Sequence record: OQ174501.1
Source: Escherichia phage REP2
Length of the DNA: 64,000 nucleotides
Reading direction: 5' to 3' (one strand)
Every line of letters begins with the position of its first letter. Positions within the stretch are counted from its first letter, which is position 1. Both the position numbers and the translations under genes were made by a program. The notes beneath the pieces are model-generated. The model was not told the origin of the DNA and searched no databases. It saw only the letters and a program-made list of their open reading frames with translations. This document shows, in pieces, positions 2,944 to 8,906 of this stretch.

Positions 2944-3287
2944 ATAAAGTCAAATATTCTCTTCCTGAGTCATTTTTAATTTTTGCTGTAGCGTTGGCTA
3001 CAGCTCTTGCGGGTAGTCTTTTTGGATTGTTAATTGACTGTCTTATTTTAAACATTGACGGCACAGTAAATATAATAGAAGTTTGGAGTGAACTTCGTTA
3101 TACTATAGCGATTTCATTATTTTCATTCTTTGGTACCATGTTATATTTTCATTATGATAATTTTAAAATAAATTGGCAAAGAAAAAAGGATTACAAAATA
3201 CAATTAAATGAATATAATAACTACATGTCTTATATTGAAAAAGAATCAATGGAAGAGTTTGTGAGTGATTGTAGGAAAATTAAATGA
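2925..3287 (+). CDS. Small membrane protein (2 TM), paralogue family
   Basis: 120 aa; TM segments; C-terminal SDCRKIK. Confidence 0.55.
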   Translation: MQKPKLNKVKYSLPESFLIFAVALATALAGSLFGLLIDCLILNIDGTVNIIEVWSELRYTIAISLFSFFGTMLYFHYDNFKINWQRKKDYKIQLNEYNNYMSYIEKESMEEFVSDCRKIK

Positions 3288-3772
3288 TTTTAAAAACTCG
3301 CTGGTATGATTTAGATGATGGGGACGATGGCATTTCAGTTGATAGAGTTGACTGGAGTGGCTGTTCCGAAGATATGAAAAAATTGTTAATTAGGGAGTTT
3401 AGAATGGGATATCAAGCAGCTAAGCCATCTACTGTAACAGATGATAAATTCGTGTGTATTCAAAATGGTCGTGCTAAGTTAACGAACGCTGATTGGTTCA
3501 CAGATAAGAAGGTTATTCTGTGGTATATTATTAGTTTTCCTGTGACATCATTTGTATTTTGCTTCTTTGGAGAAAGTCCAGTAGGCAGAACGGAAGATTG
3601 GATTCTTTTAATTATACTTGTTAATATTTTTACAGCAGCAGTACTATCAGGAATATGGTGCGTGTTCATTGAAATGCCATGGCGGTTACGTAGGCAGCAA
3701 AAGATTTTTGATGAAAAGAAATATACTCAAAATTTAAATAATTTTATCACTGAATGCAGGAAATTAAAATGA
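3284..3772 (+). CDS. Small membrane protein, paralogue family
   Basis: 162 aa; TM segments; C-terminal TECRKLK; its stop overlaps the nudE start (ATGA). Confidence 0.55.
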   Translation: MILKTRWYDLDDGDDGISVDRVDWSGCSEDMKKLLIREFRMGYQAAKPSTVTDDKFVCIQNGRAKLTNADWFTDKKVILWYIISFPVTSFVFCFFGESPVGRTEDWILLIILVNIFTAAVLSGIWCVFIEMPWRLRRQQKIFDEKKYTQNLNNFITECRKLK

Positions 3773-4208
3773 AAACATTATCAGCTGGTATTATCTTTAT
3801 GACAGAAGATAAAGATTTATTTATGGGACGAGTTACTGGTTCTCGTAAGCCTGGAATGATGGCACATCGCTGGATATTCCAAAGGGGCGTGTAGAAAATT
3901 CTGATTTAAGCGCATTAGATGCAGCACGAAGAGAATGCTCAGAAGAGACTGGTTTTAACAATTATAATCCAGACCTTCTAGAAGACCTAGGTGTATTTAA
4001 ATATTCTAGTAATAAAGACTTACAGTTATTTTATTATACGATTCCAGTAGAGCATGAGATGTTCAGAAATTGCCGTTGTGAGTCTTATTTTGAAAATAAA
4101 GATGGCGTTATGATTCCAGAGATGGATGCTTTTGCTCTTATTCCTCGTACTCAGTGGCAATATGTGATGGGTCCTTCACTTTACCGAATAATGAACAGCC
4201 TCTTTTAA
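3769..4208 (+). pseudogene. nudE: Nudix hydrolase NudE (e.1) with apparent 1-nt deletion frameshift
   Basis: N-terminal 41 codons (MKTLSAGIIFMTED...MMAHRW) stop at 3892-3894; the rest, including the Nudix box GRVENSDLSALDAARRECSEETGF, continues in the -1 frame to 4208. The break is at tgg(g)atattcc. Confidence 0.6.
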
Positions 4209-4778
<570 letters not shown>

Positions 4779-4798
4779 CAGTTACTTGGAGGGATAAA

Positions 4799-5215
4799 AT
4801 GACTCGTATTAATTTGACTTTAGTATCTGAACTTGCTGATCAACATTTAATCGCAGAATACCGTGAATTGCCACGCGTTTTTGGTATAATTCGTAAGCAT
4901 GTGGCAAACGGTAAGCGCGTTAAAGATTTTAAAATATCTTCCGAGTTTATTTTAGGTTCTGGTCATGTTACGTTCTTTTACGATAAGTTAGAATTTTTGC
5001 GAAAGCGTCAATTAGACATTATAACGGAATGCTTAAAACGCGGGTTCAGTATAAAAGATACTGAAGTTCCTGACATCAGCGATATTCCAATAGAATGGAA
5101 AAATGATTATAATCCATGCAAATCAGCTATTAAATTGAGTCAACAACGACTTGATGAAAAAATTTTAATGAAACCACACTGGTATAAGTATTACGGTAAA
5201 AATATTTACATTTAA
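4799..5215 (+). CDS. denV: Endonuclease V (pyrimidine dimer DNA glycosylase)
   Basis: 138 aa; [17 protein letters not shown]...YRELPRVFG matches T4 DenV as I recall it. Confidence 0.93.
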
Positions 5216-5224
5216 AGGAAACAT

Positions 5225-5698
5225 ATGAAAACATATCAAGAATTTATCACTGAAGCAGCTATTAATTCTCAAATTATTGCTGAATCTTTTACCGATCTTT
5301 TGAAATTTAAAAAAGGTCAAAAAATCACTGCTGTATTGGATGATGGTACAGAAGTTGAGATGGATGTACAGGGATATAATTATGCAGTAGATGGAAAACT
5401 GTATAATAAATCTCATGCTAAATTTGATTCATTTGACGACTTTGTTAATACAGTTGAAGATGAAAAAACTCGTAGATCCATTGCAACTGGCGACGCTAAG
5501 GTTCTTATGGCACATGGCCATGAACGCATCCGCGCTAAACAGAATAAAATGGGCGAAGATAATTTTGCATTAGTTGGTTATCAATCTGGTAAACAAACTT
5601 ATGGCTATCAACGTACTGCTACCATGTATAATAAAAATGGTAAAATCGCTTTCGTGAATAGTAAAGGTTCTATTCAGTACGTTAAATCGTTCAAATAA
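5225..5698 (+). CDS. Internal protein (Ip) with capsid-targeting N-terminus
   Basis: MKTYQEFITE|A capsid-targeting sequence; 157 aa. Confidence 0.7.
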   Translation: MKTYQEFITEAAINSQIIAESFTDLLKFKKGQKITAVLDDGTEVEMDVQGYNYAVDGKLYNKSHAKFDSFDDFVNTVEDEKTRRSIATGDAKVLMAHGHERIRAKQNKMGEDNFALVGYQSGKQTYGYQRTATMYNKNGKIAFVNSKGSIQYVKSFK

Positions 5699-5837
5699 TA
5701 TGGGAACAACCTGGACCTCATGATTCTATGAGGGATTCCCGCCAACCTGTAATAAGGTCGAGCCTGAGTGCGGTAATGGGTAAATACAGAAATGGACAAT
5801 TCATGCGCCACGGAATGGCCCAAATTTAGAGAGAATA

Positions 5838-6379
5838 AAATGAGAACATTTTTAACTGGTCCTTATCTATCCCTGATGAATGCTTTTACACACCATTCTG
5901 ACGCTAGAGTAGAAGAAATTTGTAAAAACGAATATATCCCGCCATTTGAAGAATTACTTAAACAGTACTGCACACTTCGACTAGATGGTGGACGTCAATC
6001 TGGTAAATCAACTGCAGTAACTAATTTTGCCGCTAATTGGTTGTATGACGGTGGAACAGTTATTGTTCTTTCTAATACTTCAGCTTACGCTAAAATTTCT
6101 GCAAATAACATTAAAAAGGAATTTTCGCGTTATTCTAATGATGATATACGTTTTCGTTTATTTACTGATTCTGTACGCAGTTTTATTGGTAATAAAGGAA
6201 GTAAGTTCAGAGGTTTATCGCTTTCGCGAATTTTGTATATAATTGACGAGCCTGTCAAATCTCCTGATATGGATAAGATTTATAGTGTCCATATTGACAC
6301 TGTACACTGCTGCTGTAATATTAAATGTTGTATTGGTGGTATTACTCGTCCACAGTTTTTCGTAATCGGAATGCAATGA
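5838..6379 (+). CDS. P-loop (Walker A) protein
   Basis: GGRQSGKST Walker A motif; start placed at the ATG after ggagagaataaa (ORF track starts at 5792); Cys-rich C-terminus. Confidence 0.5.
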
Positions 6380-6705
6380 TGACAGACACACAGCTTTTCG
6401 AATATCTCTATTTTTCGCCAAAAACTATTAAAAATAAATTGGTAAATCATTTTGAAATTTTGGCAAATAACAACATTTTAAGCGAATTTTATCCCAAGCA
6501 ATACAAATTACAAAAAGGCGTATTCAAAGGATGCAGAGTTTTGTGCACGGCTCCTAATGCACGGCTAATGAATAAAATTCCATATTTTACCATGGAATTT
6601 ATTGATGGGCCTTTTAAAGGACTAATCACACAGAGTTTAATGGCATATGATTCTGAGCCATTTTTAATTAAAGAACAATCTTGGATAAATTTATTTTCTA
6701 ATTGA
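6376..6705 (+). CDS. Hypothetical protein
   Basis: ATGA start/stop overlap with the previous gene; 109 aa. Confidence 0.5.
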   Translation: MMTDTQLFEYLYFSPKTIKNKLVNHFEILANNNILSEFYPKQYKLQKGVFKGCRVLCTAPNARLMNKIPYFTMEFIDGPFKGLITQSLMAYDSEPFLIKEQSWINLFSN

Positions 6706-6711
6706 GGTTAT

Positions 6712-7074
6712 ATGAAAGCATATCAAATTCTTGAAGGCACACATAAAGGTACTATTTATTTTGAAGATGGTATTCAAGCACGAATTATTGTCTCTAAAAC
6801 CTTTAAAGAGGACTCTTTTGTAGACCCAGAAATTTTCTATGGTTTGCATGCCCGTGAAATTGAAATTGAGCAACAGCCTACAGTTAAAATTGAAGGTGGT
6901 CAACACCTGAACGTTAACGTTCTGCGTCGTGAAACTCTGGAAGATGCAGTTAAGCATCCGGAAAAATATCCGCAGCTGACCATCCGTGTATCCGGTTATG
7001 CAGTTCGCTTTAACTCTCTGACTCCGGAACAGCAGCGCGACGTTATCGCTCGTACCTTCACCGAGAGTTTGTAA
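6712..7074 (+). CDS. Autonomous glycyl radical cofactor (GrcA/YfiD-like)
   Basis: C-terminal ~60 aa ([59 protein letters not shown]) matches E. coli GrcA with the glycyl-radical RVSGY motif; this half has host-like codon usage (ctg, cgt, ccg). Confidence 0.85.
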
Positions 7075-7295
7075 TGGCAAAGATAATTATTGAAGGTTCT
7101 GAAGATGTGCTAAATGCTTTCGCCGAGTGGTTTAGTAATTCAGGCGAACAGCAATTTAACGAAGCATGGAACATGGGTGATATTAATGGAATTTATCCTA
7201 CGACAGAAATTTCTGTTCAAGGATATGGCATTCATGAACCTATTCGTTTAGTTGAATATGATTTGGGAACAGGTGAGGAAGTAAAATATGATTGA
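7074..7295 (+). CDS. Hypothetical small acidic protein
   Basis: TAATG overlap with the upstream gene; 73 aa. Confidence 0.5.
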   Translation: MAKIIIEGSEDVLNAFAEWFSNSGEQQFNEAWNMGDINGIYPTTEISVQGYGIHEPIRLVEYDLGTGEEVKYD

Positions 7296-7554
7296 AGACA
7301 TTAAAGGTTATAAACCACATACTGACGATAAAATCAGTAAAGTGAATGCTATCAAAGATGCTGAAGTTCGTTTAGGGCTTATCTTTGATGCTTTATATGA
7401 TGAATTCTGGGAAGCATTTGATAGCTGTGAAGATGATGAACTCGCGAAGAATTACGCCGAAAGCCTCGATCAGTTAACTATTGCTAAAACGAAACTCAAA
7501 GAATCCAGTATGTGGGCTTGTCGTGCAGTGTTCCAACCAGAGGAAAAATACTAA
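7288..7554 (+). CDS. Hypothetical small helical protein
   Basis: 88 aa; SD upstream. Confidence 0.5.
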
Positions 7555-7832
7555 TGGCTCAATTAAGCGCAGGGTTTGGTTATGAGTATTATACTGCCCC
7601 TCGTCGTGTATCTGTTGCTCCTAAGAAAATTCAAAGTCTTGATGATTTCCAGGAAGTAGTTCGTAACGCTTTCCAGGACTATGCACGTTATCTTAAAGAA
7701 GATTCACAGGACTGTCTCGAAGAAGATGAAATTGCTTACTATGAGCAGCGTCTTGAACAGCTCAAAAATCTACATGAGGTTCGTGCAGAAGTTTCAAAGT
7801 CTATGAATAAATTGATTAGATTTAAAGAATAA
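7554..7832 (+). CDS. Hypothetical small helical protein (vs.3/vs.4 position)
   Basis: ATG 7554 after SD gagga (ORF track starts at 7512); 92 aa; immediately upstream of regB. Confidence 0.5.
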
Positions 7833-7866
7833 CTGTTTACTTTTCCTCTTGACTGTGGTATAATTT
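7830..7866 (+). promoter_or_regulatory. T4 early promoter (regB)
   Basis: GTTTAC 7835-7840, TATAAT 7859-7864. Confidence 0.65.
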
Positions 7867-7891
7867 TTCTATCAGTTAAGAGGAGAATAAC

Positions 7892-8353
7892 ATGACTATC
7901 AATACAGAAGTTTTTATCCGTCGAAATAAGCTTCGTCGTCACTTTGAGTCGGAGTTTCGTCAAATTAACAATGAGATTCGTGAGGCATCAAAAGCAGCAG
8001 GAGTCTCATCGTTTCATCTAAAATATTCTCAACATCTTCTTGATCGTGCAATTCAACGGGAGATTGATGAGACATATGTTTTTGAATTATTCCATAAAAT
8101 AAAAGACCATGTTTTAGAAGTTAATGAATTCCTGAGTATGCCTCCGCGTCCTGACATTGACGAGGATTTTATTGATGGGGTTGAATATCGTCCTGGACGT
8201 TTAGAAATCACAGATGGAAATCTTTGGCTTGGATTTACAGTTTGTAAACCTAACGCGAAGTTCAAAGACCCGTCACTTCAATGTAGGATGGCAATTATCA
8301 ACAGTCGTCGTTTACCAGGAAAGGCTTCTAAAGCAGTAATTAAAACTCAATGA
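7892..8353 (+). CDS. regB: RegB site-specific endoribonuclease
   Basis: 153 aa; MTINTEVFIRRNKLRRHFESEFRQINNEIREASK matches T4 RegB as I recall it. Confidence 0.93.
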   Translation: MTINTEVFIRRNKLRRHFESEFRQINNEIREASKAAGVSSFHLKYSQHLLDRAIQREIDETYVFELFHKIKDHVLEVNEFLSMPPRPDIDEDFIDGVEYRPGRLEITDGNLWLGFTVCKPNAKFKDPSLQCRMAIINSRRLPGKASKAVIKTQ

Positions 8354-8360
8354 GGTAAGC

Positions 8361-8906
8361 ATGAGAAAAGCACTACTCGCTGGTCTATTGGCCATTTCAA
8401 TGATGGCACATAGCTCCGAGCATACTTTCAGTAATGTCCAACTCGATAACATGCGTTACGCGTATCAATTCGGGGAACAATTTTCTAAGGATGGAAAATA
8501 TAAAACACACAAAAATATCCACAAGAGCGGATTAGGTCATATAATGGCTGCTATTTTATGGCAAGAAAGCTCTGCCGGAGTTAATTTAAAATCTAAACCA
8601 AAGCATCATGCCTATGGAATGTTCCAAAATTATTTGCCTACTATGCGAGCAAGAGTTAAGGAACTTGGTTATAATATGACCGATGCTGAAATAAAAAGAA
8701 TGTTGAATAAACGGTCCAATTCAGCTTCCTGGGCGTACATTGAACTTTCTTATTGGTTAAATATACATAAGGGCGATATAAGAAAGGCGATATCCTCTTA
8801 TAATTCGGGATGGAATGTTAAAGCAGGTTCTAAATATGCTTCTGAAGTCCTAGAAAAGGCTAATTACCTTAAAAATAATAAACTTTTGGAAATAGTAAAT
8901 GACTAA
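8361..8906 (+). CDS. Periplasmic lytic transglycosylase-like protein
   Basis: Signal peptide MRKALLAGLLAISMMAHS; family-1 LT motifs WQESSAG, GMFQ, SYNSGW. Confidence 0.65.
   Translation: MRKALLAGLLAISMMAHSSEHTFSNVQLDNMRYAYQFGEQFSKDGKYKTHKNIHKSGLGHIMAAILWQESSAGVNLKSKPKHHAYGMFQNYLPTMRARVKELGYNMTDAEIKRMLNKRSNSASWAYIELSYWLNIHKGDIRKAISSYNSGWNVKAGSKYASEVLEKANYLKNNKLLEIVND

Follow-up and report, generated by a model that had tools for sequence, protein, structure and literature searches.

The two immune-signal sponges with which the locus described here is compared, Acb2 and TadIV-1, were already characterised in phage T4, in 2023 and 2026 respectively, and in this respect the locus is not new biology. 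Vs.4 of T4 was found by Jenson et al. to be a sponge for cGAMP and was named Acb2; its hexamer takes up three cGAMP molecules (PMC10449767, commentary). For 3',3'-cGAMP the KD of the T4 protein is about 84 nM; cA3 is not bound, an exclusion which was attributed to residues Y37, A57, L60, D61 and T64 together with an unkinked helix (PMC10312549). The exchange Y8A abolishes dinucleotide binding by T4 Acb2, and F82 stacks on the ligand (PMC12657218). In the Acb2 protein of PaMx33 the residues Y11 and K26 are essential (PMC10312549). The traits of sponges are summarised in 10.1101/2025.07.12.664507.

The second sponge, which acts on type IV Thoeris, is described by Chen et al. (Nat Commun 2026), who by phage mating pinned the inhibition of this defence system on vs.3 of T4 (PMC13243611). 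According to this work no other T4 gene inhibits the system, and the product of vs.3 was named TadIV-1 (PMC13243611). The protein is a two-helix homodimer which sequesters N7-cADPR without degrading it, with a KD of about 216 nM and a narrow specificity, and it requires a flexible N-terminal loop; activity is confined to the long homologues that have this loop, those of about 70 aa being inactive (PMC13243611). Mutational evidence marks R17, R18 and K24 of the T4 protein as important, and the ligand pose is a modelled one, the crystals being without ligand density (PMC13243611).

The window analysed here is a stretch of 64,000 nucleotides from Escherichia phage REP2 (OQ174501.1). Between positions 7074 and 7832 it carries three small ORFs of 73, 88 and 92 aa, which are co-oriented on the + strand, start with ATG, overlap each other and are directly followed by regB (Table 1). 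The original prediction had described these coupled ORFs exactly in coordinates and lengths, and had placed them in the region where vs.3 to vs.8 are found in T4. That is also borne out by the gene order, which in the T4 reference is vs.8-vs.7-vs.6-vs.5-vs.4-vs.3-regB-vs.1-vs and which the window follows from vs.6 through regB. The T4 reference genes vs.3 and vs.4 measure 279 nt (92 aa) and 267 nt (88 aa). A stretch of 2.1 kb at this locus is 100% identical in nucleotide sequence to Escherichia phage REP3, a Tequatrovirus, and hundreds of T4-like phages match the same stretch with 98-99% identity. Judged from its sequence, the locus corresponds to vs.5-vs.4-vs.3 of a T4-like (Tequatrovirus) genome.

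Table 1. Features of the vs.6 to regB region of the window; functions of the vs genes are predicted by homology.
Feature	Position	Strand	Description
vs.6, autonomous glycyl-radical cofactor (GrcA-like)	6712..7074	+	Pfam Gly_radical E=2.5e-18; identity to T4 Vs.6 118/120
vs.5 homolog	7074..7295	+	73 aa, small acidic protein, uncharacterised family
vs.4 = acb2	7288..7554	+	88 aa, predicted anti-CBASS cyclic-dinucleotide sponge
vs.3 = tadIV-1	7554..7832	+	92 aa, predicted N7-cADPR sponge (anti-type IV Thoeris)
sigma-70/T4 early-type promoter before regB	7836..7864	+	delimits the vs transcription unit on its 3' side
regB endoribonuclease	7892..8353	+	landmark, outside the sponge pair; Pfam REGB_T4 E=1.4e-68; identity to T4 RegB 152/153

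All three ORFs have full-length matches to conserved phage protein families in PHROGs, with E-values of 2e-40 to 5e-43 for Vs.5 and Vs.3 and of 7e-31 for Vs.4, and are for this reason regarded as real genes and not as chance reading frames. The dN/dS values in comparison to T4 are 0.04 for vs.5, 0.13 for vs.4 and 0.12 for vs.3. Scans of the three ORFs with PADLOC and NCBIfam gave no match, and the primer sequence of the T4 Sequestin (Y16O) is absent from the window. In the literature a search for vs.5, vs.6 and vs.4 returned numerical "vs." matches only, and a search pairing Vs.3 with regB returned none.

The genes are tightly packed. The stop codon of vs.6 and the start codon of vs.5 overlap by 1 nt (TAATG), as do the stop codon of vs.4 and the start codon of vs.3, while vs.5 and vs.4 share 8 nt (ATGATTGA). 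A GAGGA Shine-Dalgarno sequence is located 9-10 nt before both vs.4 and vs.3. The only convincing promoter nearby is the one in front of regB, which consists of TTTACT and TATAAT separated by 17 nt, with a TG preceding the -10 hexamer; phage DalCa (99.4% identical) has a promoter annotated at this place. Over the region as a whole 19 promoter-like sites were found and 18.1 are expected from shuffled sequence, so that there is no enrichment. Since the sole convincing promoter lies after vs.3, the three genes are probably read from an upstream transcript coming from the side of vs.8-vs.6. They are translationally coupled. From the lack of promoter-like sites and from their overlapping stop and start codons we infer that they are co-transcribed. 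For T4, the expression atlas lists vs.4/acb2 as mainly middle/late.

The ORF of 88 aa is the Acb2 protein of the locus, and it can be assigned by homology to the T4 Vs.4 type. It matches the Pfam family PF24729 (Acb2_Tad1_hairpin) over the complete profile (positions 1-58 of 58) with 66.5 bits (E=2.4e-18), where the curated cut-off is 27 bits, and it matches the structure deposited as "Vs.4" (PDB 7UQ2) over its full length (residues 1-88, E=2.2e-51). In the alignment to T4 Vs.4, 80 of the 88 residues are identical (91%), so that one ORF of the trio clearly resembles Acb2, as had been anticipated. The likeness to the T4 protein includes the equal length, the position between vs.5 and vs.3, the pocket residues Y8, K23 and F82, of which Y8 and K23 align with Y11 and K26 of PaMx33 Acb2, and the residues held responsible for the exclusion of cA3. 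Y37, A57, L60, D61 and T64 as well as T68 are all unchanged, and therefore a T4-like ligand spectrum restricted to dinucleotides is suggested. The Acb2 protein from the Pseudomonas phage PaMx33 (PDB 8H2J/8IXZ) is only a distant relative (E=0.18); the arginine of its cA3 pocket is absent from the protein of the window, which has D61 there, as in T4.

Like its T4 homologue in the crystal, the protein would form a hexamer that holds three cyclic dinucleotides, for example 3',3'-cGAMP, in pockets to which the N-terminal part contributes Tyr8 and Lys23 and the C-terminal part Phe82. Capture of the dinucleotides would prevent the activation of CBASS effectors, and binding of cyclic trinucleotides is, as for T4 Acb2, not expected.

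While an Acb2/Vs.4 sponge is indeed present among the three ORFs, it is not the one for which it had been proposed. The original prediction favoured the ORF of 92 aa at 7554-7832 as the best match, an argument from size alone in which T4 Vs.4 was given some 94 aa; the actual length of that protein is 88 aa (267-nt CDS). As the proposal assumed, the ORF of 92 aa adjoins regB and codes for a small helical protein. However, it gives no BLASTP alignment to T4 Vs.4 at E<=100 and no match to the Pfam Acb2 family at E<=0.1, whereas 91 of its 92 residues are identical to T4 Vs.3 and it matches the TadIV-1 protein from UPEC07 (PDB 9WIW) with E=5.6e-38. We consider it hardly conceivable that this ORF encodes the anti-CBASS sponge.

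The ORF of 92 aa is instead assigned to Vs.3/TadIV-1, a sponge family which is distinct from Acb2. It is a long form (>80 aa) in which the flexible N-terminal loop is present, its N-terminus is identical to that of T4, and R17, R18 and K24 (T4 numbering) are all kept. As in T4, the gene is located just before the regB promoter. The single substitution in comparison to T4 Vs.3 is T63E, and a Glu also occupies this position in the crystallised homologue from UPEC07. That homologue differs by an insertion of nine residues in the N-terminal loop, and this insertion is missing in the window protein as it is in T4. By homology Vs.3/TadIV-1 would form a two-helix homodimer, the flexible N-terminal loop of which (with R17, R18 and K24) would capture N7-cADPR, the signal which the type IV Thoeris TIR protein produces, and in this way keep the caspase-like effector off.

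Within the segment, acb2 is the local peak of divergence from T4. Its nucleotide difference is 8.2% in comparison to 0.6-4.1% for the neighbours, it has eight amino-acid changes where the neighbours have one or two, and its dS is the highest (0.33). The substitutions (T4 residue first) are E13D, E14D, G17S, L44F, N46S, C50D, F52L and A73S, and none of them hits a published contact residue. Positions 44-52 belong to the middle segment of the protein, which is hypervariable across genera, while the N- and C-terminal segments are nearly invariant. Positions 13, 14 and 17 sit in the N-terminal region which forms the dinucleotide pocket. Because three of the eight substitutions fall into this region, the affinity or the ligand spectrum of the protein, including its binding of the Panoptes decoy 2',3'-c-di-AMP, could differ from that of T4.

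One could go further and suppose that this Acb2 has functionally diverged from the T4 protein under diversifying selection and has acquired an altered ligand spectrum, for instance a weaker binding of the Panoptes decoy. The divergence peak would fit such a scenario, and so would the narrow occurrence of the allele, which at an identity of at least 99% is matched by REP3 alone; moreover, Panoptes has been proposed to favour altered or lost Acb2, and in T2 the acb2 gene is disrupted. However, the published contact residues are all unchanged, and 161 further phage records contain alleles with 95-99% identity. An arms race on acb2 was also rejected on account of the substitution rates: dN/dS is with 0.13 the same as in the flanking genes and dS is raised too. 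We therefore regard a functional divergence of this kind as quite improbable. With an ordinary dN/dS and an elevated dS, the excess of differences looks like that of an older or recombined (mosaic) allele under purifying selection, and not like positive selection.

The first of the three genes, vs.5, encodes an uncharacterised protein. It matches phrog_1986 from end to end (E=4.7e-43), and by tblastn it was found in 987 phage records, nearly always in full length. With dN/dS values of 0.04 in comparison to T4 and 0.14 in comparison to T2, vs.5 can be regarded as a real gene which is conserved across the Tevenvirinae and under purifying selection. The T4 reference deviates here, as its Vs.5 (NC_000866/AF158101/X04567) is frame-shifted and comprises 58 aa in contrast to the 73 aa in the window. 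It would be tempting to take T4 as a natural vs.5 null. That was rejected, as the form of 58 aa is confined to three legacy-derived records (X04567, AF158101 and NC_000866), while the independently sequenced T4 isolates all have an intact vs.5 of 73 aa, and Vs.5 of re-sequenced T4 isolates is 97% identical to the ORF of the window. The short reference form seems to be an artefact carried over from the legacy sequence.

Vs.5 has a mass of 8.2 kDa, a net charge of -11 and a pI of 4.05. Its conserved residues include the aromatics F16, W19, F20, F28, W32, Y41 and Y62 as well as an invariant G-E-Q motif, whereas of the basic residues K3 alone is conserved. An AlphaFold2 model based on an alignment of 28 sequences is confident (pLDDT 88.2) and predicts an alpha+beta fold, in which a long helix (residues 10-33) is packed on a beta-hairpin (44-49 and 58-63). 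The description of the three proteins as helical thus agrees with Acb2 and TadIV-1, which are essentially helical, but not with the predicted fold of Vs.5.

No relative of known function could be identified for Vs.5. There is no sequence match in Pfam, NCBIfam, PADLOC or PDB, no structural relative was found for the predicted fold, and neither in sequence nor in fold is there any similarity to the known sponges Acb2, Tad1, Tad2, TadIV-1, Acb4, Sequestin and Lockin. In particular, the best BLASTP alignment to Acb2 covers 7 residues (E=0.38), without a match to the Pfam family. A profile search against 1.84 billion representatives revealed about 15 small relatives and no informative fusion. A single protein of 118 aa fuses the N-terminal half of Vs.5 to a PG_binding_1 domain, which is uninformative. 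Large proteins with multiple hits were also obtained and rejected as homologs. They are composed of FG-GAP beta-propeller repeats that share the short motif "WFENxGxQxFTE", and because Vs.5 is predicted to be helical at that motif, these matches are regarded as a repeat-amplified motif and not as homology.

The gene order was compared in seven genera of the Tevenvirinae. In Tequatrovirus, Mosigvirus, Dhakavirus, Winklervirus, Karamvirus and Jiaodavirus vs.5 is located upstream of acb2, either directly or with one gene in between. In the Gelderlandvirus STP4-a it adjoins regB, and both acb2 and vs.3 are absent, for which reason an obligate linkage of Vs.5 and Acb2 was rejected. TadIV-1 was found in Tequatrovirus only among the sampled genera. 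In the phage collection Acb2 is present in 1231 records, Vs.5 in 987 and TadIV-1 in 651. On account of this distribution over the genera, with vs.5 retained in STP4-a, and of the numbers of records, Vs.5 is regarded as independent of the sponges, not as their obligate partner, and as having been at the locus for longer.

Counter-defence proteins are typically small and clustered with other anti-defence genes. This raises the question if vs.5-vs.4-vs.3 might form one counter-defence cassette of three parts, in which Vs.5 would be a third inhibitor of bacterial immunity. Several properties of the gene are consistent with that: the overlap of 8 nt couples vs.5 translationally to acb2, the two genes are neighbours or nearly so in six of the seven sampled genera, and the protein is small, strongly acidic, widespread (987 records), under strong purifying selection (dN/dS 0.04-0.14) and confidently predicted to have a novel fold. 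Such an inhibitor would most plausibly bind a protein or mimic a nucleic acid rather than act as a nucleotide sponge. A role as phosphate-binding sponge seems unlikely, because the protein is very acidic and has a single conserved basic residue (K3), and for the lack of other conserved basic residues Vs.5 would, as an inhibitor, be expected to bind a host protein or to mimic nucleic acid and not to sequester a nucleotide.

However, among the known anti-defence proteins Vs.5 has no relative by sequence or by fold, the profile search revealed no informative fusion with a known domain, and in STP4-a it occurs with neither of the two sponges. The single conserved basic residue also speaks against the binding of phosphate-rich signals. 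The neighbourhood itself is a weak argument, since the other adjacent genes (vs.6 coding for the GrcA-like protein, vs.7 and vs.8) are not known as anti-defence genes. Furthermore, in the TadIV-1 study each gene of the T4 "Part I" fragment was assayed, and vs.3 alone gave a block of type IV Thoeris, which counts against the cassette provided that vs.5 is located on this fragment. Taken together, we consider a cassette of three counter-defence genes possible but rather doubtful, and it is unlikely that Vs.5, with its new predicted fold, is an unrecognised counter-defence or host-takeover protein. If it were, vs.5-vs.4-vs.3 would be a three-gene anti-immunity cassette.

The reading of the locus which we prefer, and of which we are highly confident, is that of two adjacent immune-signal sponges, Acb2 and TadIV-1, next to one conserved and uncharacterised neighbour, Vs.5. 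For both sponges the published functional residues are without exception kept, the gene order agrees with T4, and purifying selection is seen. With regard to the ligand, the oligomeric state and the effect on the defence systems, the properties of the T4 and UPEC07 orthologues are transferred and would be expected to apply. For annotation the assignments are of value, as REP3 and most of the related records still list all three genes as "hypothetical protein".

The phage of the window thus has, side by side, intact copies of two different sponges, one predicted to act against CBASS (cGAMP-type signals) and the other against type IV Thoeris with its signal N7-cADPR. With respect to the host range it is predicted that the phage resists CBASS and type IV Thoeris, while it is probably sensitive to Panoptes, a decoy system that responds to Acb2. 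The content of sponges may accordingly be useful in the choice of therapeutic phages.

The anti-CBASS sponge gene acb2 (7288-7554) forms the local maximum of divergence from T4 in a comparison that included its flanks (6376-8906). In acb2 22 of 267 nt differ from T4 (dS 0.33); the corresponding numbers are 3 of 462 nt for regB and 7 of 546 nt for vs.1. This peak suggests, as far as can be judged from the sequences, that Tequatroviruses have exchanged the acb2/vs.5 segment in a mosaic manner. A match of at least 99% to the Acb2 protein allele of the window is found in phage REP3 only. In phage T2 acb2 carries a 2-nt deletion (AAGGGATAAACC compared to AAGGGTTATAAACC in T4), which leads to a stop at codon 8 and to the loss of the critical pocket residue Tyr8. 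The deletion is common to two independent T2 records (NC_054931 and PV648363), and the disruption was already noted in the Panoptes paper as a probable escape from the defence triggered by Acb2.

Positions of genes upstream of the locus (REP2 window) and of the acb2 deletion in T2
Feature	Location	Remark
e (endolysin)	window 4245-4739	
denV	window 4799-5215	
Internal virion protein	window 5225-5698	157 aa, single gene
vs.8 homolog	window 5840-6379	179 aa by REP3 annotation
T2 acb2 2-nt deletion	NC_054931, about 1715-1740	
T2 acb2 2-nt deletion	PV648363, about 337-365	

Vs.5 is annotated with 58 aa in the T4 reference (NC_000866, 4382-4558), compared to 73 aa in the window (7074-7295). The short form arises because the two sequences differ by 1 nt past codon 17 (GCTTTCGCGAGTGG in the reference, GCTTTCGCCGAGTGG in the window), together with further small differences. 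Among the T4 records compared it is restricted to X04567, AF158101 and NC_000866, and all independently sequenced T4 isolates (MT984581, HM137666 T4T, KJ477684-6, OL964735 and others) contain the intact 73-aa gene with a vs.5/vs.4 overlap of 8 nt. The 58-aa protein is therefore probably a legacy sequencing error that was passed on into RefSeq and UniProt. The profile search for relatives of Vs.5 gave multi-repeat matches with E-values down to 6e-15, because the conserved motif W-F-x-N-x-G-E-Q-x-F-x-E resembles the core of the FG-GAP_3 repeat (IAWFENNGSQSFTE). We judge this likeness to be motif convergence, amplified by the repeats, since Vs.5 is predicted to be helical at the motif.

The Shine-Dalgarno sequence of regB (region 7870-7891, AAGAGGAGAA) includes the RegB cleavage motif GGAG. 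Those of vs.4 (7275-7287) and vs.3 (7540-7553) read GAGGAA and lack GGAG, so that the sponge mRNAs may be spared RegB cleavage at their ribosome-binding sites.

Vs.8 gave weak P-loop NTPase-like matches to AAA_14 (E=0.004), Terminase_6N (E=0.035), the phrog_2 large terminase (E=3e-6) and PADLOC PtuA (E=0.008), and might be a small ATPase. No sigma-70-like promoter was found in the 140-nt intergenic region 5699-5839 between the internal-protein gene and vs.8. This region contains the inverted repeat CCTCAT-GATTCT-ATGAGG, flanked by GGGAA...TTCCC, a possible RNA structure or site of processing.

The internal-protein cassette upstream of vs.8 is variable. The window (4245-5840) has the order e, denV, 157-aa internal virion protein, vs.8, in contrast to e-ipIII-ipII-denV-vs.8 in T4. 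In the 99.4%-identical phage DalCa no gene for an internal protein separates denV from vs.8. In the Karamvirus Aeromonas phage PS49 an additional 54-aa ORF (3230-3394) lies between vs.5 and acb2. While the slot between acb2 and regB is occupied by the anti-Thoeris sponge gene vs.3/TadIV-1 in Tequatrovirus, PS49 contains there an unrelated, helical-looking ORF of 76 aa (3669-3899). Possibly this position is a hot spot at which small, perhaps anti-defence, genes are exchanged.
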